From assembly GCA_963846575.1 (NCBI GenBank), contig CAWJWJ010000001.1, forward strand, positions 1,152,001 to 1,216,000: a stretch of DNA of 64,000 nt. The letters run 5' to 3'. The DNA comes from an uncultured Nitrospiraceae bacterium (GTDB lineage Bacteria; Nitrospirota; Nitrospiria; Nitrospirales; Nitrospiraceae). The position numbers were made by a program, and so were the translations under genes. The notes beneath the pieces are model-generated. The model saw only the letters and a program-made list of their open reading frames with translations, was not told the origin of the DNA and made no database searches. Below, in pieces: positions 8,811 to 19,416 of the stretch (its first letter is position 1; every line of letters starts with the position of its first letter).

Positions 8811-9632
8811 TCAGGACAAATGGGTCAGATAGAACGCGGCAGCCTGTGATCTCCTGGTGAGGTGCAGTTTCGTATACACATTGGCCAAATAGTTTTTTAC
8901 GGTTTTGTCGCTGAGGCCGAGTTCCGCGGCGATCTCCTTATTGGTTTTTCCCTGCGCAATAAGCGGGAGCAGGCGTTGCTCCTGAGGGGAGAGCAGATTC
9001 CGGCCACGCTCCGGTTCGCGATCTGCCAGCTTGCGAAGATAGGCGAACGTGTGCCGGGTCATCCCCGGGTCGAGATACGATTGCCCCTTGGTCACCGTTC
9101 TCAACGCATGCAGGAGGGTGTCGGTACCGGCATCCTGCAGAACATACCCGTGCGCTCCGGTGGCCACGGCCGACAGGAGGATGGTGTCGTCCAGCGTATC
9201 GGCCAGGAAGAGGATGCGCGTCGACGGGAGTCGTGAGAGCAGGTCCTTGGCCGTGTCGATCCCTTTCCCGTCCTGCACCCGCAAGTCGAGCATCACGATA
9301 TCAGGTTTCAACTGGAGAATGAGCGGCAGCGCATCCTGGCGCGACCCGGCCTCCCCGACCACGGTAAAGTCAGTGACGGATTCGAGGAGGGTCCGGATCC
9401 CCACTCGGACGAGCTCTTGCGGATTGACGATGAACACGTGGGCTGCTTTACCCTGTAGCTGATTCATAGATGTATTCCAAGTTGATGTAGGCGGTGTCTT
9501 GTGAGTACTCACTAGCCGGAGAAGTGATTCAGATTCCTTTTCCAACGCCGCCTGGGGATCGTTGGGCAGCATGGGACCGGCCGGCATGGAACCGATCGAT
9601 CGAGCGGGCTTTTGGTCGCGATGTGTTTCCAT
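8811..9632 (-). CDS. NarL/LuxR-family response regulator with degenerate receiver domain
   Basis: REC-like domain plus LuxR HTH (LSPQE...GKTNKEIAAELGLSDKTVKNY). Start chosen at 9632 (SD GGAGGGGAG); 9467 is an alternative. Confidence 0.85.
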   Translation of the reverse strand: METHRDQKPARSIGSMPAGPMLPNDPQAALEKESESLLRLVSTHKTPPTSTWNTSMNQLQGKAAHVFIVNPQELVRVGIRTLLESVTDFTVVGEAGSRQDALPLILQLKPDIVMLDLRVQDGKGIDTAKDLLSRLPSTRILFLADTLDDTILLSAVATGAHGYVLQDAGTDTLLHALRTVTKGQSYLDPGMTRHTFAYLRKLADREPERGRNLLSPQEQRLLPLIAQGKTNKEIAAELGLSDKTVKNYLANVYTKLHLTRRSQAAAFYLTHLS

Positions 9633-9738
9633 GACTCCCCTCCGTGTTTGCAGCCGATGAAGTTCTCTCTTGTGGTCATGCGGCCCCGTCAGGACGAGGC
9701 CGCGCCATTCTGTGGCCTTCGTGAAAAGGGCGCTTCCG

Positions 9739-11052
9739 TCAAGAAACCTCCGCCAGATGATTGAACTTGAGCTGTTCCATGACCGGGAGCGGACCGTGGG
9801 CTCGCACACCGACATCCACCCGTGAGAGGGCCAGCACCACATTCTTACCGCCGAACCCGAAGCTGTTGATCAGGGCCTTGCCGATCCGGGAGGGGCGTCC
9901 TTGCAGCGCGACATAATCCAGATCGCACGAAGGATCCGGGTTGGTCAGATGCAACGTAGGCGGAATAAACTGGTGCTCCATGGCCAGCGCCGTGCCGATG
10001 ACCTGGAACGCGCCGCTGGCGGCGAAGGCGTGTCCCAGGGCGGACTTAAAGGAGCTGACAGGCACGCGGTAGGCGTGGGATCCCAGCGATTCTTTGATGG
10101 CCGTCGTCTCGATACTGTCGAGCTCCATGGTCCCCAAACCGCAGGCGTTCACATACTCGACTTCCTCCGGGAACCAACTGGCAGTGACCAGGGCCCGGTC
10201 GATGGCGCGTTTTTGTTCCTTGCCCGATGCCAGGGGGCGCGCCATGGAATAGGCGTCACAGGTGAAGCCCCATCCTTCCAGCTCCGCATACATCGGCGCT
10301 CCGCGCAAACGCGCGTGATCGTAATCTTCAAGAATGAGACAGCCGGCGCCTTCTCCGAGCACCATGCCGCACCGCGTGCGATCGAAGGGCCGTGGCAGGT
10401 TGCGAATCGTGCCGCCTTGATCCGGCGCGAGGACTCGTCCCGCCTCCATTGCCGAAAAAATCGTCGGATGCAGCGGGGCTTCGGTACCGCCCGCGAGGAT
10501 GATGTCGGAATGGCCCGCGCGAATCATTTCGAACGCGCGGCCGATGGCGTTGGCGGTGGAGGAGCATCCGATGGAGTAGGTTTCGCATTCCCCGTTGATG
10601 CCGAGTGCGATGGCGATTTCCCCCGACACGGCGTTGGGGAAGGTGGAGGCCATCGTGAAGGGGCTGAGGTGTTGATGCCGCAGCATGCTGTCATGCGCGG
10701 CAAAGGCTTCCCGGAGGCCGGCGACGGAGGTGCCGAGGCAGATGGCCATCTCCGAACGGTTTTCATGCTCAATGTCCAGCCTCGCATCCCGCACGGCCAT
10801 GAGGGCCGCTGCGACGGCGAAATGGCTGACGCGGCCCATGCGGCGAACCTGTTTGCGGGGAATAAAATCCTCGGCATCGAAGTCTTTGACTTCACCGGCC
10901 AGGCAGGAGGAAAAGGGGGTGGTGTCGAAGGATGAAAGCGGTGCAATTCCGCTCTGGCCTGTGCTGAGCAAGTGCCAAAACGTCTCGAGATTATTCCCTA
11001 GCGGGGACACGATTCCAAGCCCGGTGATGACCACTCTACGCATCTGTCTCAT
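9739..11052 (-). CDS. FabF-like beta-ketoacyl synthase (atypical active site)
   Basis: RRVVITGLG, catalytic Cys in SIGCSS, RPFD...GEGAG, KSALGH, NSFGFGG. The first catalytic His motif reads NACG instead of NAHG. Start 11052 has SD GGAGG. Confidence 0.85.
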   Translation of the reverse strand: MRQMRRVVITGLGIVSPLGNNLETFWHLLSTGQSGIAPLSSFDTTPFSSCLAGEVKDFDAEDFIPRKQVRRMGRVSHFAVAAALMAVRDARLDIEHENRSEMAICLGTSVAGLREAFAAHDSMLRHQHLSPFTMASTFPNAVSGEIAIALGINGECETYSIGCSSTANAIGRAFEMIRAGHSDIILAGGTEAPLHPTIFSAMEAGRVLAPDQGGTIRNLPRPFDRTRCGMVLGEGAGCLILEDYDHARLRGAPMYAELEGWGFTCDAYSMARPLASGKEQKRAIDRALVTASWFPEEVEYVNACGLGTMELDSIETTAIKESLGSHAYRVPVSSFKSALGHAFAASGAFQVIGTALAMEHQFIPPTLHLTNPDPSCDLDYVALQGRPSRIGKALINSFGFGGKNVVLALSRVDVGVRAHGPLPVMEQLKFNHLAEVS

Positions 11053-11068: not shown

Positions 11069-12367
11069 TTACGATCGTTGACTGTCTCGACATTCTTCAC
11101 CCTCATGCCACGCCATAAGGTGTTCAAGATGGTTCTGTGATACGGCGGACCGCGGGTAGTATGTGTCGTAGAAATTCAGATCCAGATGATGCGCCTGGCA
11201 GGCCACGATGGATTTGAATGCGTCGACGTGGGCGGGAAATCGTCCATAGGTGCGAACGACGTACTCGCAGAAGGCGACGGTGGCGGCGATGCTCTGCTCC
11301 GAGTGTCGCGGGATTTGCGGTTTGATGGCGGGATTGCTCCAGGGCTGGGAGTCCGGTGTGACGTAGAGACCGGAGGCGCCGAACTTGGAATCGATCAGGC
11401 TCAGCACCGCGGCCTCCATGCTTCCGACCATGGGTGGCGTGGGCGCTTCCCAGATCCCGGGAAGTCCGATGGGATTCGGCCGGCGAGGCCCGGTCGTGGG
11501 CATGTGGAATTGAAAACCGAGTCCCGGGACGAGGTGTGGCTCGATGCCCAGAAGGTGACGTCCGCTGCCGACGCTGTGAATCCCACCTCCCAATCCAATG
11601 GCCTGTTCCATGAGAAAAATGTGTTCGGCGACGATCCCCTGCTCCTGGACGGCGGTATCGCTGATGGCGCTGTCGAGATCGCGCAACGTCATCGTGCGGC
11701 GTTTCACCGGATCGTCATGGAGGTGGCCGCCGCGGCTTTTTCTGAACCGGTCAAGTCCGCAGGCCTCGTTGGCATTGTCGGTATCCACGATGAAATAGCC
11801 GTATTCGTCGCTGAGCAGGACGAGGAGGAGGTTGAGATACACGCTCGCGATTTCAGTGACCGGAATGAAGTAGGTGCTGCCCGGCCGGTTGGCGTACCAC
11901 TGATTGAAACTGAGCATGAACGGAAGCTGCCGGGGAATGTCCAACCGCTGCGCGGAGAGTTCCCTCACCTTCGTCATAGCCGGATCTTCCGGAACGGCGG
12001 ACTCGGTGACGAAGTAGGTGCCTGTGTCGTTGGTGAAAAAGAGACGGGTCGTCTGGGCCGCACAGGCGCTGGGCACCGTACGTCCCTGAAGATTCATGAT
12101 CGCCATCCCCTGGCCGTCCTCGGCCTGAGGCCGCGCCGAAAACTGCATGTCCGCCGTGTGAGGGCCGGTCTTTCCCACTCCTGCGAAGATGAGGTGCCGC
12201 TCTTCTTCCGCGCTCAAGGGTAGGGGGGGCAAAGAACTTTTATACTGCAGCGGGCCGGCGGGCAGTTCCATCCCACGGCCGAATCGCCGGGTTTTTCGTT
12301 GCTCCAGCAAGTCAAGCAATGTTCGGACGGATGCGGATCGGGAAACGTGGCACGTTGAATTCTCCAT
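11069..12367 (-). CDS. Conserved hypothetical protein, nitroreductase/SagB-like fold suspected
   Basis: N-terminal R-K-T-R-R-F, 'PLSAEEE' and 'RTVPSA' resemble FMN-binding motifs (RRSxRxF, RxxPSA) of nitroreductase-like proteins; strong SD AAGGAGGAGG. Confidence 0.55.
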   Translation of the reverse strand: MENSTCHVSRSASVRTLLDLLEQRKTRRFGRGMELPAGPLQYKSSLPPLPLSAEEERHLIFAGVGKTGPHTADMQFSARPQAEDGQGMAIMNLQGRTVPSACAAQTTRLFFTNDTGTYFVTESAVPEDPAMTKVRELSAQRLDIPRQLPFMLSFNQWYANRPGSTYFIPVTEIASVYLNLLLVLLSDEYGYFIVDTDNANEACGLDRFRKSRGGHLHDDPVKRRTMTLRDLDSAISDTAVQEQGIVAEHIFLMEQAIGLGGGIHSVGSGRHLLGIEPHLVPGLGFQFHMPTTGPRRPNPIGLPGIWEAPTPPMVGSMEAAVLSLIDSKFGASGLYVTPDSQPWSNPAIKPQIPRHSEQSIAATVAFCEYVVRTYGRFPAHVDAFKSIVACQAHHLDLNFYDTYYPRSAVSQNHLEHLMAWHEGEECRDSQRS

Positions 12368-12462
12368 GTCCTCCTCCTTCTATCGACCGCTGGTTCGTGG
12401 GGCCCGGAAGCCGCTCGTTCGCCGGATGATGGGCCACCCTACTGGAAACATTTGAACAAGGA

Positions 12463-12482
12463 ACCTACCCGGGCGGGTAGGT
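12463..12482. promoter_or_regulatory. lux-box-like 20-bp palindrome in a divergent promoter
   Basis: ACCTACCCG-GG-CGGGTAGGT: perfect 9-bp arms with the ACCT-N12-AGGT frame of canonical lux boxes; -10-like hexamers 21 nt away on each side. Confidence 0.75.
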
Positions 12483-12619
12483 GTCAAAGATTGGCCGCAG
12501 GCCTATGGTGCGATGGCGACGAGGTGAGCTTCGAGGCGGACTACGTAAAGAGCGACAACGCGCATACTTTTTCCTGTCTCCCCGCAGTCGCAGGGAGGCG
12601 CCAACAAGGAGGCATGCAC

Positions 12620-14176
12620 ATGGCAGAGTCAACTCCTACCGGATGCCCGTACCATTCATCGGCCGGCATGAATTCGAGCGCGACGCGAGTCTCTGCACCA
12701 TCCGGACGCACCCTGGCCGACCTACCCGGCCCTAAAGGACTTCCGATCCTGGGGAATCTCCTGCAACTCGACTTGAAGCATCTGCATAGCGTGCTCGAGC
12801 AATGGGCGCAGGAATATGGCGCGATGTATCAATTCCGGATCGCTCACAAGGCCGTCGTGGCGGTGACTGACAGTGACTTGATCAACGAAGTGTTGCGCAA
12901 GCGGCCGGATGCCTATCGACGTCTCAACGCCATCGAGCCGGTGCTCAAGGAAATGGGCATCAACGGGGTGTTTTCCGCCGAGGGAGATCATTGGTACCGA
13001 CAACGACGGATTGCCATGCAGGCGCTCAACAACGCCCACCTGCGTCAGTTTTTTGAGACCCTCGTGAAAGTGACGGGACGATTAAAGTCCAGGTGGGATC
13101 GGGCCGTCGCGAAGGGCGGCCACGTGGAGGCGCAGAAGGATCTCACCCGCTACACCATCGATGTGACCGCCAATCTGGCGTTCGGGTACGACGTGAATAC
13201 GTTGGAGACGGACGGCGACGATCTCCAAGGCCATCTTGAGCGGATCTTTCCCATGGTCAACCGCCGGATCAATGCGCCGTTTCCCTATTGGCACTTTGTG
13301 AAGCTGCCGGCCGACCGCGCATTGGAAGAGTCCCTGGCCTTCGTGCATAAGGCGATTCGCGGCTACATCGCTCACAGCCGGGCGCGATTGGCGACCGATC
13401 CTGAACTGCTGGCGCATCCCACCAACTTCCTGGAGGCCATGCTGGCCACCCAAGAGGGGGAAGGTTCGGAATTCACCGACGAAGAAATTTCCGGTAACGT
13501 CCTCACGATGCTATTGGGAGGGGAAGACTCCACGGCCGCGACCATGGCCTGGATATTCCATTTCCTTATGGACCATCCCGACATTCAGGCGCGTGTCCAG
13601 ACGGAAGTCGACGAGGTCCTGGGCGGGAGCGAAATGCTCACGAACTATCGCGATCATGAGCGATTGCCCTATGTGGAAGCCGTCGCTTTCGAGACCATGC
13701 GGTTGAAGTCGGTCTTCCCCGTGCTGTTTTTAGGGACCAATCAGGATGTAGAGCTGGGTGGCGTGCGGATTCCGGCAGGCACGGCCATTTTCCTGCTGAC
13801 CCGGCAATGCGGCATGCAGGAGGAATCCTTCGCGTCGCCGCACCAGTTTTTGCCCGAACGGTGGTTGACCCCTCGCACAGGAGTTCAGGAGGGACACAAT
13901 CCGAAAGCGTTCGTGCCCTTCGGGGCCGGTCCGCGTTTTTGTCCGGGAAGAAACCTGGCGCTGCTGGAGATCAAAGCCATCTTGGCGATGCTCTGCCGGA
14001 ATTTTTCGATTTCGAAACCGGTCGATGCCCCACCGGTCGGAGAGCAGTTCGGGTTCCTGATGGCCCCCGCGAATCTGTCCGTGGACATGCACAGACGGCA
14101 CGACGCGCCTGCCTCCAACGGCGAGGAGATTCCGCATGCCGGTCTGGAGCATCCGTTTGCAACCACTGTGTCGTGA
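12620..14176 (+). CDS. Cytochrome P450
   Basis: LPGPKGLPILGN, I-helix GGEDST, ExxR (ETMR), PERW, heme motif FGAGPRFCPG; SD AAGGAGG before ATG 12620. Confidence 0.95.
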   Translation: MAESTPTGCPYHSSAGMNSSATRVSAPSGRTLADLPGPKGLPILGNLLQLDLKHLHSVLEQWAQEYGAMYQFRIAHKAVVAVTDSDLINEVLRKRPDAYRRLNAIEPVLKEMGINGVFSAEGDHWYRQRRIAMQALNNAHLRQFFETLVKVTGRLKSRWDRAVAKGGHVEAQKDLTRYTIDVTANLAFGYDVNTLETDGDDLQGHLERIFPMVNRRINAPFPYWHFVKLPADRALEESLAFVHKAIRGYIAHSRARLATDPELLAHPTNFLEAMLATQEGEGSEFTDEEISGNVLTMLLGGEDSTAATMAWIFHFLMDHPDIQARVQTEVDEVLGGSEMLTNYRDHERLPYVEAVAFETMRLKSVFPVLFLGTNQDVELGGVRIPAGTAIFLLTRQCGMQEESFASPHQFLPERWLTPRTGVQEGHNPKAFVPFGAGPRFCPGRNLALLEIKAILAMLCRNFSISKPVDAPPVGEQFGFLMAPANLSVDMHRRHDAPASNGEEIPHAGLEHPFATTVS

Positions 14177-15467: not shown

Positions 15468-16451
15468 TCAACGCTGGACCTTCAGCGTGGGGCCGAGGGC
15501 GAGCCACTTTGTCGGGCCGATCGCGGCCATGTGAGGGAGATGGGCGACATACCAGAACACGAGGTCCTGCTCCTGCACGCCTTGATTGTCTTCATCATAG
15601 CCGAGCTGCCCGCGGGCTCCGAATACCCAGGGGATGTCTTCGTCGGGATTGGCCCGGCGGATCGCCACATCGTGGTCGGCGAAATTATCGCGTTCTCCGT
15701 CGTCCTTGAGTGGTGCGTAGCCCTCGCCCGGCAGGATCCAAATGCCATGTCCGGTCGGCTGATCACGGACGAACCAGATTCGATGGGTGCTGAGGTTTTT
15801 GACGTCGTTGCGTTCGTTCACGTATTTTTTCCAGCCCGGTCCCCAGCCCTGATCGGATCCTCCGTCATCGTGGAGGAAGACCTGGTCCATGCCGTTGCCG
15901 TTAATGTCAAAATCAAACCGCCAGTAGGGATGGTGTACGTGGTCGGTGTTACAGGAAAGGCCGCGACTGTGAACAACGGGCCGTAACTCGCCATCGTCTG
16001 AGAGGTGCCAGGATTGATAGATATGGTATTCGCCGATCCTGGCGTAGATGCCGAGTTCCAGCCACTTCACCCCCCCTACGCTGGAGCTCTCGACACAGAC
16101 CTTGTGGTTACCGCAGTTCACAATCGGGACCAGATCCTGCCAGCGCAACCGGTCTTGAAAGGGGCCGCAGCGGCCGCTGTCGGCGCGGGAACCGAACCAG
16201 GTGAAGGGATTCCACCACCGGCGTTCTTTGACGTATTTCACCCGCACGACCGGCATGCTGGCTTTGGCCAGAACCGGTTCACCGCCGTAGACAAGATGTC
16301 GAAGCGCGAGGCCGGTGCTGTCTTTGACTTCGTAGTCGAAACTCCAGCGCCCCCAATCGAGATGTTCCGACAGCTGCTCCGCCGAACCGGGCAGCGGCAG
16401 GGCCAAGGCCAGGGTCCAGAACAGCACGGCAAGCAGTGCAATGCGTGTCAT
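15468..16451 (-). CDS. Secreted protein resembling the catalytic domain of copper amine oxidases
   Basis: Signal peptide (MTRIALL...GSA-E); GRWSF...GLAL...VLAKASM, IGEYHIYQSWHLSDDGEL, HVHHPYWRFDFDI, DLVFWYVAHLPH align by eye with CAO motifs. Confidence 0.6.
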   Translation of the reverse strand: MTRIALLAVLFWTLALALPLPGSAEQLSEHLDWGRWSFDYEVKDSTGLALRHLVYGGEPVLAKASMPVVRVKYVKERRWWNPFTWFGSRADSGRCGPFQDRLRWQDLVPIVNCGNHKVCVESSSVGGVKWLELGIYARIGEYHIYQSWHLSDDGELRPVVHSRGLSCNTDHVHHPYWRFDFDINGNGMDQVFLHDDGGSDQGWGPGWKKYVNERNDVKNLSTHRIWFVRDQPTGHGIWILPGEGYAPLKDDGERDNFADHDVAIRRANPDEDIPWVFGARGQLGYDEDNQGVQEQDLVFWYVAHLPHMAAIGPTKWLALGPTLKVQR

Positions 16452-16470
16452 GCGGTATCCTTTCGCTTGT

Positions 16471-17268
16471 CTATCGGGGCGGTTCATCCCCAGCGTCCAG
16501 CACACGATCATCGGTCAGATCCACCTGCGCCCAATACCTGGGGTCGCCATCCTGTCCCTGGGAGAAGGTAATCCAGATGACCCGGTGTTGATAGCCGGGA
16601 TCGTGCTTGAAGAATCCGCGATCCGGCTGCATGAGGAGCCCGTGTCCCTGCAGAGACCCCACCTTTCCGGCGAGCCGTGCATCGGCGCGGGCTAACTCGA
16701 TCCCCCGCTGAACATCCTGCGGTCCTTCGGGGGGCAGATAGCCTTCCTGTCGCGAGGCCTGCAGCACGGACCGGTCCTTCATGCGCACGAAGATGGCGAC
16801 GTTGTTACTGTAGCTGAAGTAGGTCAATCTGGTGAATCGCGCCTCATTTCGGCAGCAACCGTAGGAGACTTTGCCTTCCGGCGGCAGACGATCCGCATCA
16901 ATAAACGTCCAGCGGGTACCCAGGAGGGCAGTCACCTTGGGATCGCCTTCGGCCGCTTTTCGCATCGCGGTCATCTCCGAGTCCGACAGGACGGCTGCGT
17001 CATTGGGCGACCGCATGACGGCCGCCTCGATGACCGTTCCCGCCATCTTGGGTTTGATGTGCCCGACGGATTCGTCGGCCGTAAATCCCAGGGTGTGTCT
17101 GGTTGGTATGTGAGCCGGAAGCGGCGTTTTGGGAATGGCGGTTTCTGGATCTTCCGGCCCGAACGGCCCACGAGAACCGGCATCGAGGCTGCAGCCGATC
17201 TGGATGATGCAGGGCAGCGAGACGAGGCAGAACGAGATGGCTAGTCGGCGGTTCACGCGGGGCCTCAC
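16471..17268 (-). CDS. Lipoprotein, possibly equivalent to the N-terminal (N2/N3) domains of copper amine oxidases
   Basis: Lipobox-like IQIG-C; two alpha/beta repeats, ending YWAQVDLTDDRVL; GTGA overlap with the upstream gene. Confidence 0.5.
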   Translation of the reverse strand: MRPRVNRRLAISFCLVSLPCIIQIGCSLDAGSRGPFGPEDPETAIPKTPLPAHIPTRHTLGFTADESVGHIKPKMAGTVIEAAVMRSPNDAAVLSDSEMTAMRKAAEGDPKVTALLGTRWTFIDADRLPPEGKVSYGCCRNEARFTRLTYFSYSNNVAIFVRMKDRSVLQASRQEGYLPPEGPQDVQRGIELARADARLAGKVGSLQGHGLLMQPDRGFFKHDPGYQHRVIWITFSQGQDGDPRYWAQVDLTDDRVLDAGDEPPR

Positions 17269-17786
17269 ACGACCGCCAGTTTGCCGGCGACGCCGAGCGC
17301 CAATCTGGACAACTGGGCCGCGGCCTTGATGACGGCGGCCCGTTTCTTCCGGGAAGCCCCATCGAGCACGGCCCTGCTCAAGAGATCTTTACACACGGTG
17401 ATGTCGTCGGCTTCAAAGGGAACGATGCGGGCTATCGTGTCGTTGTTGAAGGTATTGGCCAGTTGTACATAGAGATTGGAGATTTCTGCTGCGTAGATCC
17501 CTCGCCGCAGAGGGTCGTTCTTATAGGTTTCAAACTTCTTCCGCAGAGCGGCTACGGCATCCAGCAATGCCGTTTGACGAACTTTGGTCTCATCCTGACG
17601 GCAGACCGCGAATTCTACGGTCCCTAACTGATCGACCAGGCTTTGTGCTTCGTCCCGCGCATGGTCCACACGCGTAGCCAGTTGTTCGATATCAGTGGCG
17701 GCGCTTTCGGCTGTCTCCATCAGTTGCTTGATCAAACTGTCATTGTTTTGGAGATAGGTGACCACTCCCTCGATGCTGCGGTTCAT
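17265..17786 (-). CDS. Hypothetical alpha-helical/coiled-coil protein
   Basis: 173 aa; SD GGAGG; heptad-like helices; tightly packed in the operon. Confidence 0.7.
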   Translation of the reverse strand: MNRSIEGVVTYLQNNDSLIKQLMETAESAATDIEQLATRVDHARDEAQSLVDQLGTVEFAVCRQDETKVRQTALLDAVAALRKKFETYKNDPLRRGIYAAEISNLYVQLANTFNNDTIARIVPFEADDITVCKDLLSRAVLDGASRKKRAAVIKAAAQLSRLALGVAGKLAVV

Positions 17787-17797
17787 AGAGGCCTCCC

Positions 17798-18505
17798 TTA
17801 CTGCCCCTCGTCCTTCTTCAGGCGGTCGAGGAGTTCCACCAGGTCGGCGGTGAAGTTCTGTGCCCGCGCCAATCCGCCGACCCGCAGGATACGCGCGCCG
17901 ACGATTTCCTCCAGCGCGTCATTCACCGTGCGTGAGCGATTCAAGACTCCCATGATCTGCTCGGATCGGCCGGGAGCGTGATCCAGGATTGCGCCGACGA
18001 ATTCAGGATCGACGGATGCCAGAGCCGACTGTCTCGCGAAGCGCGTGAGTTGAGCATGGAGGGTCGCCGTCTGCTTCCATGAGTCGTTGAGGGCATTGGC
18101 CGTATCCCGGAGACCGCAGAAATCCTCTTCAAATTGGTCCCAGACTGCCTTCTCCAGTCCCTGTGCATCGGCCATATACATGAGGCTCACGAGATAGGCC
18201 GCGGCATAGGCGGACTCGCCCTTTTTGTTGGTCACGTTCCGGAACGACTCCATAACAAAGCGGTGTTTGGTTTCGAGGGTCTGAAGCGATTTGAAGCTCT
18301 CATGCAGGGAACTGCGGGCATCCTCCAGGAATTTGATTCGGGCTTCTGTCTCTTTCTGGAACAGATCGATGTTGGTCTGCGCGGCATCGATCTTTATGCC
18401 CTCCAACTGGATGAGATCCCGCACGGAGCTGCTGTGGATGGAATGGCAGCCGGTTGCAGCGAGGAGTACCAGAACCATGAATATCGGCGTACGGAGCCGA
18501 ATCAT
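17798..18505 (-). CDS. Hypothetical helical lipoprotein
   Basis: MIRLRTPIFMVLVLLAATG-C lipobox; SD AAGGAG before 18505 (alternative start 18541). Confidence 0.7.
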   Translation of the reverse strand: MIRLRTPIFMVLVLLAATGCHSIHSSSVRDLIQLEGIKIDAAQTNIDLFQKETEARIKFLEDARSSLHESFKSLQTLETKHRFVMESFRNVTNKKGESAYAAAYLVSLMYMADAQGLEKAVWDQFEEDFCGLRDTANALNDSWKQTATLHAQLTRFARQSALASVDPEFVGAILDHAPGRSEQIMGVLNRSRTVNDALEEIVGARILRVGGLARAQNFTADLVELLDRLKKDEGQ

Positions 18506-18537
18506 GGCCCGCTCCTTCTTCCCGCCGTCCGGCCCGG

Positions 18538-19170
18538 TCATCGGCGCACCTGACGTACCGCATCGGCCAGCGCCTGGGTTTCGGACCGACTGACCGTGAC
18601 ATCAATGTCCAGGTATTGCTTGATGATGGCATTAATCCGGCGAAGGGCTTCGACATTCGTCCGGTACTGATCGAACGCGGTGAGGTCCAGGGTGGAAGTC
18701 GCCTGCGAGTCCGCCGCGACGCGCTGTTCGACGCGTGCAATAAGCTCGGGGAGCTGCTGCACTAGATTGCTCATGTCACCCGAGCCGGCCGAAAAGACCG
18801 GTTGCCCGTTCGGCCCCTTGCGCTCCGGAAGGGAATTCAGACGGATCTGATTCACCACTGCAATGATCTCCGGGCCCAGAAGTGCGGCATCGTCTTCAGT
18901 GATGGCCCCATCCGGAACGCCCGTCAACGTGGGATTGGTCGTCGCCCACTGCAGCGCGAGATTGAGCTTGAGGCGGGTTTGAATGAAGCGATACCACTGG
19001 ACATGTCGGGTGGTGATGTTGCTCACGAGTTCACGGTACTGCTGCATGAGCCTCTGGTGTTCGACATATGCCTGGTCCTTCGCGGCGAGCGCCTGTTTTA
19101 TTTCAGGCGGCGTCGTGCAGGCAGCAAGTAGGGCACACATCACCCAGCTACATAGGCGCGACATTCTCAT
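18538..19170 (-). CDS. Hypothetical helical lipoprotein
   Basis: MRMSRLCSWVMCALLAA-C lipobox; SD GGAGG. Confidence 0.7.
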   Translation of the reverse strand: MRMSRLCSWVMCALLAACTTPPEIKQALAAKDQAYVEHQRLMQQYRELVSNITTRHVQWYRFIQTRLKLNLALQWATTNPTLTGVPDGAITEDDAALLGPEIIAVVNQIRLNSLPERKGPNGQPVFSAGSGDMSNLVQQLPELIARVEQRVAADSQATSTLDLTAFDQYRTNVEALRRINAIIKQYLDIDVTVSRSETQALADAVRQVRR

Positions 19171-19416
19171 CGGGACGCCTCCCCGTACAAAATCCCGGCG
19201 CAAGACCGCAGTTGGAATAGGCAAACTACATACCTCACCGGGATGAATGAATTGTTGGCCGGAGTATGCGTGGATTGCCTGAGCTACAAGGGAAAATCCG
19301 AACATGTCGCAGATTGCTACATTTTAGGACTTTCGAAATTCTGTACTCATTCAGATACGGCTGTATCGAAGCCAATACAGTGGGGAATACCGGGCTGGAG
19401 ATTGCCTGTAGTTGCC

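Follow-up and report, generated by a model that had tools for sequence, protein, structure and literature searches.

LuxR of Vibrio fischeri acts at the lux box, a 20-bp inverted repeat centred near -42.5 (PMC3376562). In Nitrospira, the box of the NspR1/NspI system is a 20-bp ACCT-N12-AGGT dyad between two divergent genes (Tan et al. 2021, PMC8553950). The NspR box is bidirectional by reporter assay and EMSA, a precedent for two-way geometry, and NspR, which keeps the pocket residues W-Y-D-P-W-G, answers C8-HSL (PMC8553950). The non-AHL Photorhabdus solos of the PluR/PpyS and PauR/DarABC systems keep the pocket Y and D but not W, W and G (PMC4414361), and their signal pathways use a ketosynthase-type enzyme. 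Solos have also been listed in Nitrospira, namely N. defluvii D8PAV3/NIDE0589 (PMC4338825) and UR5/UR44 (PMC8553950); the accessible portions of these two sources list them with no box, targets or ligand. According to a 2025 survey, many lineage I genomes have LuxR but no LuxI, and the role of this LuxR is unclear (PMC12342949).

Here we describe a locus in a window of 64,000 nucleotides (the whole stretch of DNA analysed) from an uncultured Nitrospiraceae bacterium, the named relatives of whose genome are Nitrospira. The locus shares with NspR1/NspI the 20-bp ACCT-N12-AGGT dyad between two divergent genes, and in the luxI loci examined the NspR box occupies the same chromosomal slot. However, the inner bases are GGCG in the NspR box and ACCC here, the recognition helices differ, and the pocket of the present solo departs from that of NspR. 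On the luxI side of the NspR box, TA-N3-T was found at 20–23 nt in 0 of 27 loci, unlike at the present box. The CT-N12-AG frame and the protein fold are common to V. fischeri LuxR and the present system, whereas the inner bases differ; here the genome has no luxI match and the predicted targets are enzyme genes on both strands. PluR/PauR carry the pocket motifs TYDQCS / TYDQYI, compared with (H/L/F)-Y-D-P-S-C here (PMC4414361). The candidate signal enzyme is FabF-like with Cys-Cys-His and has a nitroreductase-fold partner, unlike in the Photorhabdus systems, and the box lies directly on the enzyme genes, whereas the PluR/PauR circuits are described as lacking autoinduction (PMC10134790). NIDE0589 and UR5/UR44 read F-Y-D-P-(gap/S)-C, like our F-type members, and the neighbours of NIDE0589 (a copper amine oxidase and a hypothetical protein) also match those members; the window's allele is H-type, with a P450 gene inserted.

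Results

A dyad with two flanking hexamers

The box lies inside the gap 12368-12619, between the P450 gene on the plus strand and the 432-aa gene on the minus strand. Strong ribosome-binding sites precede both divergent genes (Table 1). Since the P450 gene converges on luxR, it needs a promoter within this intergenic region.

Table 1. Features of the locus, in window coordinates
Feature	Position	Strand	Basis or remark
NarL-type response regulator	8811-9632	-	just downstream of ketosynthase; start uncertain, 9632 or 9467
FabF-like ketosynthase	9739-11052	-	first catalytic His replaced by Cys; begins just past 432-aa gene
432-aa protein, nitroreductase (FMN) fold with large insertions	11069-12367	-	predicted model
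Ribosome-binding site AAGGAGGAGG, 432-aa gene	12370-12379	-	sequence
-10-like hexamer TAGGGT, candidate flavoenzyme-ketosynthase promoter	12441-12436	-	21 nt from box; predicted start 12429
20-bp dyad, putative operator, ACCTACCCGGGCGGGTAGGT	12463-12482		9-bp arms around GG; CT-N12-AG frame
-10-like hexamer TATGGT, candidate P450 promoter	12504-12509	+	21 nt from box; predicted start 12516
Ribosome-binding site AAGGAGG, P450 gene	12606-12612	+	sequence
Cytochrome P450, 518 aa, heme Cys motif	12620-14176	+	Pfam p450, 321 bits
LuxR solo, 284 aa	14217-15071	-	LuxR ligand-domain fold and GerE HTH; helix VSLNTVKFH

An earlier sequence-only reading of this DNA had proposed a bidirectional lux-box promoter of symmetric geometry. 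The dyad with perfect 9-bp arms in an ACCT-N12-AGGT frame is present, and TATGGT on the plus strand and TAGGGT on the minus strand, each 21 nt beyond the box, were both confirmed in the sequence. The box had been placed near -43; when the hexamers are set at -12 to -7, its centre computes to -43.5 and the starts to those in Table 1. The claimed likeness to the V. fischeri lux box holds for the outer frame, but the inner bases are ACCC here and GTAG there (PMC8553950).

The 4.2 Mb genome contains 39 palindromes of the 9-2-9 form, so that a palindrome by itself is not rare, and 48 ACCT-N12-AGGT sites. TA-N3-T at 21 nt on both sides was found at 106 of 4,202,284 genome positions. This two-sided arrangement occurs in 1 of the 39 palindromes, 1 of the 48 ACCT-N12-AGGT sites and 1 of 12,088 CT-N12-AG sites, and it is always this dyad. 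The hexamers match TATAAT at 4 of 6 (TATGGT) and 3 of 6 bases (TAGGGT), and a plain sigma-70 consensus scan gave 0 promoters within 12200-12800. A perfect TTGACA on the minus strand (12487-12482) overlaps the dyad end. It was rejected as a -35 element because no -10 lies at 16–18 nt and because close relatives do not conserve it.

The genome scan that the earlier reading had suggested gave no further boxes: none lies within one or two mismatches of the 16 specified positions, and the dyad is the sole site. With three mismatches there are 15 sites, one of them with a single -10, and these were treated as background. In 201 genomes, one-mismatch matches were no commoner than those of a reversed-pattern control, among the matches listed. 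The 14-base box core was found in at least 121 metagenome stretches; among the matches listed, 3 have the module, and in 108 both the module and a -10 at 21–22 nt are missing. Seven listed matches (L146, L177, L187, L201, L209, L220, L224) lie near other LuxR/NarL-type HTH genes, on unrelated contigs that lack the module and some of which carry neighbouring half-sites.

Between the ketosynthase and the response regulator there is a strong hairpin without a U tail (9660-9700, minus strand), and no U-tailed terminator was flagged in this interval. Transcription running on into the downstream response regulator and kinase genes could provide an output of the module, the response regulator itself being a possible one. 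No ACP gene was seen in the module. On the other side, between uvrC and the solo, five co-oriented little-known genes (15468-19305, minus strand) are syntenic in congeners and have no box upstream; one of them has a weak copper amine oxidase domain.

The second -10 follows the divergent P450

We collected 71 loci with orthologs of the 432-aa gene in Nitrospiraceae, which gave 56 distinct box contexts, the window's own counted. The orthologs of these contexts share 57–100% protein identity with the window gene. All 56 have the box upstream of the 432-aa gene. In 53 contexts it is within one mismatch of ACCTACCC-N4-GGGTAGGT and in 3 it is a related variant; the family consensus is (A/G)CCTACCC-N4-GGGTAGGT. 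Across the 53, the arms are near-invariant and the 4-bp centre is free, with no compensatory change.

Toward the 432-aa gene, TA-N3-T stands at 21–22 nt in 56 of 56 contexts. The second -10, at the same spacing on the other side, is present in 19 of 19 contexts with the divergent P450 versus 6 of 34 without it, compared with a background of 0.2–0.4% at other offsets; in these 34 comparison contexts luxR lies directly upstream of the box and there is no divergent gene. In the 19 P450-type contexts both hexamers keep their T, A and T without exception (100%), and the spacer columns are variable (commonest base 36–94%). The comparative data thus support the proposed bidirectional promoter, that is, a candidate activator site for two divergent promoters. 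Because the 19 two-sided contexts form one receptor clade, they represent one origin under long selection and not 19 events.

Without a divergent gene, the second -10 was found in 4 of 15 L-type and 2 of 16 F-type contexts. In the sister (L-type) clade it is full in 4 contexts, reduced to TA in 7 and missing in 4 (n=15), and it looks decayed there on comparison of these sequences. Six loci (L009, L011, L014, L020, L055, L071) have a second -10 aimed into the luxR 3' end with no divergent gene. We read such an element as what is left from a lost P450 or as a promoter for antisense transcription.

In N. moscoviensis, transcripts come from both arms, in line with two divergent promoters. RNA-seq of a reactor culture on mineral nitrite medium gave RPKM values of 759 for the 432-aa ortholog (rank 203), 463 for the ketosynthase (rank 433) and 429 for the P450 (rank 486) (PMC6606698). 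The luxR solo, with RPKM 224, was below the enzyme genes, and the module transcripts showed no significant change across three time points (PMC6606698).

We also considered whether the dyad is an RNA hairpin, a terminator or a product of chance, and give this almost no credence. A terminator scan does flag the dyad on the minus strand, and the substitutions seen most often in it (A1 to G, C7 to T) would leave G-U wobble pairs on one strand. However, the 53 contexts contain no compensatory change, most relatives lack a U-rich tail, and both -10 elements are downstream of the box. The genome counts of the two-sided geometry given above argue against chance.

The adjacent LuxR solo is the likeliest binder

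Co-occurrence, a box type of its own and one co-variation of box and helix make the adjacent solo the likeliest protein to bind the box. The solo was found in 55 of 201 family genomes and a close ortholog of the 432-aa gene in 54; the two sets differ by a single genome, in which luxR ends a contig. Distant paralogs of the 432-aa gene (33–42%) occupy eleven loci, all of them devoid of luxR, ketosynthase and box, and the solo was not found in 211 genomes from other families of the phylum. The variant recognition helix KTH (for KFH) is present in both distinct variant-box contexts with a sequenced luxR, which count as one event. In each of the 27 luxI loci examined the box is a different one, ACCTGGC-N6-(G/A)CCAGGT, and the recognition helix of NspR differs from that of the solo.

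A box of the present type, Nspbox68 (printed as ACCTACCCCGGTGGG), appeared in the motif scan of Tan et al. (PMC8553950). NspR1 with C8-HSL gave only 1.06-fold on Nspbox68, which is no induction, compared with 197 and 14 on its own box (PMC8553950). Nspbox68 is likely the promoter of this 432-aa gene family, judging from its primer, of which 13 nt ahead of the start codon match locus L091, with 5 mismatches overall.

It is very unlikely that the dyad is bound by another protein, such as the downstream NarL-type regulator or NspR, or that the solo represses through it. A NarL-type regulator does lie just downstream in the window, and the seven listed metagenome matches near other LuxR-type HTH genes, where the module is absent, would suit another binder. 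Yet luxI genomes have NspR and a NarL-type regulator in the same slot and lack a box of the present type, and NspR1 failed to induce this type in the assay described above. Repression would be in keeping with the overlap of the box with the -35 zone and with the TTGACA at its end, but that hexamer is not kept in close relatives and lacks a -10 at 16–18 nt, and a fixed spacing of 21–22 nt without a -35 fits activation.

The model of the solo has a pLDDT of 89, and its best Foldseek matches are CviR, RhlR, SdiA and QscR; the alignment behind it has 68 rows, 16 of them NspR. E178 and G188 are present in 51 of 51 solos, and position 182 is L, M or I. The solo scores 20.9 bits against Pfam Autoind_bind, under the cut-off of 23, and a PF03472 profile search of the genome did not recover it. 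EpsA (TIGR03020) is the nearest named family, at 94 bits, below the cut-off of 170. A search for PEP-CTERM, prompted by this likeness, gave no match, and the controls had no match either; work on stieleriacine (PMC7293339) had no bearing on the matter.

Numbered on the NspR rows, the AHL-type pocket is W57-Y61-D70-P71-W85-G113, compared with H-Y-D-P-S-C in the window solo. Y61, D70 and P71 are retained in 51 of 51 solos, whereas W57, W85 and G113 are replaced in all 51 and retained in 21 of 21 NspR. Judged by these residues, the receptor is unlikely to use an AHL and its ligand is probably not a standard one. No luxI was found in the 99.9% complete genome, either as a PF00765 match, in a search that was positive in 74 of 201 relatives, or by tblastn with five Nitrospira LuxI ORFs.

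With the same operator and activator, the solo could sense an outside molecule, be it another acyl compound or the AHL of a neighbour, which the enzymes would then modify, degrade or salvage, as in eavesdropping or quenching. We find this rather unlikely. The retained Y61, D70 and P71 suit it, and Kop et al. suggest AHL eavesdropping for lineage I LuxR (PMC12342949), but the replaced W57, W85 and G113 speak against it.

The enzymes encoded by the module

The label "nitroreductase-like", given to the 432-aa protein in the sequence-only reading, holds by fold in the predicted model (pLDDT 79). The protein had no match in Pfam, NCBIfam or PDB sequence searches. Its best VIA match is 8cqs (Z 12.5, rmsd 2.9, 165 aligned), and the azole oxidases BmdC, ThcOx and McbC gave Z values of 10.0, 9.8 and 9.0. 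The best 50 VIA matches listed are all nitroreductase-fold or flavin oxidoreductase entries. Foldseek with the model found nothing at E < 0.001. Among distant homologs, 11 of 69 weakly match PF00881, one above the cut-off. The invariant R24, R27, R28, R96 and S100 fit what we take to be FMN motifs. The shared fold, as modelled, does not reveal the reaction of the protein. Its unnamed wide family (P0141, P0207 and L072-L082 among it) has 1,434 representatives at E < 0.001, and two members are fused to an MpaB/rubber-oxygenase-like or acetoacetate-decarboxylase-like domain.

The ketosynthase call of the same reading was right as to a FabF-like protein, with Cys and the second His kept, but the first catalytic His is missing. 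The change is His303 to Cys (NAH to NAC, codon at 10143). NAC was found in 54 of 54 distinct orthologs, and NAH or NLH in the three aligned paralogs of the genome. All 54 orthologs thus have Cys-Cys-His in place of the Cys-His-His triad of an elongating FabF, and the fabF score of 421 is below the cut-off of 494. The two His of the triad Cys-His-His drive decarboxylative condensation (PMC9006962). With the first of them replaced by Cys, we infer that the enzyme loads acyl groups without normal elongation. NonJ and NonK, too, are reportedly without the first His. By description, the enzyme resembles NonJ/NonK, CerJ and BomK, which have the ketosynthase fold and form C-O or C-N bonds, not C-C bonds (PMC10006239); by this analogy, an acyl-transfer role would have a precedent. 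The P450 is without a close solved or characterised relative (best solved E 4e-43).

P450s and flavin oxidoreductases are able to act on acyl chains, which would suit modification of an outside molecule. So would 4qlx, a fatty-acid enone reductase of the nitroreductase fold found among the VIA matches (Z 8.2). An acyl-loading ketosynthase, however, would suit synthesis more than breakdown.

Receptor and P450 type travel together

The module lies between uvrC and the NarL-type regulator. The same slot carries nspR and nspI in luxI genomes, and some loci carry both the module and nspR/nspI there. Module and luxI occur together in 6 genomes versus about 20 if they were independent, although kin are not independent in this count. 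In genus g19, luxI persists in 4 of the 5 module genomes; in g10, it is present in 0 of 3 module genomes versus 25 of 27 others.

In 11 module loci, nspR has most of its ligand domain deleted and luxI is missing from the locus; three of these genomes (G105, G118, G190) have no luxI match whatsoever. The truncated genes (L043:8672-9287, L047:7777-8329, L049:4555-5100, L054:8744-9289, L056-L059, L061, L063 and L066) are intact ORFs of 180–205 aa with a conserved HTH, and their products are possibly ligand-independent activators. At these loci the NspR box is often retained upstream of the kinase-regulator pair despite the loss of luxI. In N. moscoviensis, luxI shares the NspR box with a divergent histidine kinase-response regulator pair (L064:10687-12146, NITMOv2_0515/0514), and the kinase gene has expression rank 16.

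In one clade without the divergent P450, the ketosynthase is directly followed by an unrelated P450 of 401 aa (27% identity across 206 columns). This type was seen at L057:8742-9944, L058:8749-9954 and in 11 more rows, never alongside the divergent P450 in the loci examined. A third P450 type (L122:4282-5496, minus strand) lies in the uvrC-solo interval of a variant-box locus and is 33% identical to the downstream type.

The W57-equivalent (pocket position 75) follows the P450 type. Counting rows that include duplicates, all 19 with the divergent P450 have H there and all 13 with the downstream P450 have L or M; of the 32 others, 26 have F, 5 have L (these on short contigs) and 1 has a gap. 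For 26 selected loci with all four genes, the receptor tree needs 2 type changes, compared with 6 for UvrC, 4 for the flavoenzyme and 6 for the ketosynthase. The receptor of the window clusters with distant P450-type loci (support 97), and the window's UvrC with F-type congeners (99). AU tests rejected both crossings of the receptor and UvrC trees (p 3e-45 and 1e-5), with quick trees and groups picked after a first look at them. From the tree conflict and the pocket/P450 match we conclude that receptor and P450 move together in place, partly apart from the core enzymes. Such co-movement, which amounts to about two pocket changes, would be expected if the P450 sets a specificity that the receptor must match.

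Alternatively, the module could make a metabolite or lipid that is not the ligand of the receptor, with the solo tying its synthesis to another internal or external cue. Regulators adjoining biosynthetic genes often do not sense the product, and the synthases of the two known non-AHL LuxR circuits are outside receptor control (PMC10134790). This explanation leaves unexplained both the match between pocket residue and tailoring enzyme and the place of the module in the luxI/luxR slot, between uvrC and the NarL-type regulator, and it seems improbable to us.

Discussion

The element is a real, conserved regulatory element of an uncharacterised module. From the sequence, conservation, spacing, linkage, folds and residue changes that we observed, we infer binding, activation and the start sites. 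The dyad is very probably the operator of the adjacent LuxR solo, activating both promoters. In the mechanism that we propose, ligand-bound dimers of the solo would sit at about -43 of two back-to-back sigma-70-type promoters. Neither promoter would have a -35 of its own, and the solo would switch on the two of them in the manner of LuxR at luxI, so that the P450 gene and the flavoenzyme-ketosynthase operon would be induced together. Judged by its sequences, the enzyme set looks like a small pathway: a ketosynthase that loads acyl groups and probably does not elongate them, an FMN oxidoreductase and, as an option, a P450 would together yield one acyl-derived molecule.

If the dyad is this operator, the enzymes quite possibly make the receptor's own ligand, so that the circuit autoinduces. 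We judge autoinduction somewhat more likely than enzymes acting on an outside compound. One target locus per genome would suit an inducible catabolic unit. In contrast, the module was well transcribed in the N. moscoviensis reactor culture on mineral nitrite medium, and pocket and P450 type co-travel between lineages. The main difficulty for a quorum function is that the box has no other targets in the genome: with a single box, a quorum circuit would show no regulon beyond the module.

More tentatively, the locus may belong to a second, LuxI-independent quorum system of Nitrospira, in which the solo autoinduces a signal pathway and which replaced AHL signalling in many lineages, with exchangeable dialects. 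The dialects, if they exist, might differ in whether no P450, a divergent P450 or a downstream P450 tailors the signal, with pocket F, H or L to match. The two-way box could, under the same speculative scheme, serve to keep the tailoring enzyme of the H dialect in the loop.

Two-way lux boxes have been described before, in Nitrospira as well, and the two-way geometry has no novelty by itself; our open-literature search found no box with this exact geometry. The box type and the receptor have each been listed earlier, and we found no link between them in the open literature. Because the PluR/PauR circuits are described as lacking autoinduction (PMC10134790), a box directly on candidate synthases would be new.

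In soils and waters, as well as in treatment plants, Nitrospira drive the oxidation of nitrite. For the LuxR receptors that they carry without LuxI, the locus supplies the operator that these probably use, the only targets of that operator and a candidate pathway for the signal. The question can be tested in E. coli with genes of a cultured strain, N. moscoviensis NITMOv2_0518-0521. If the enzymes do make the ligand, this would be an autoinducing non-AHL LuxR circuit with new enzyme chemistry, unlike PluR/PauR.
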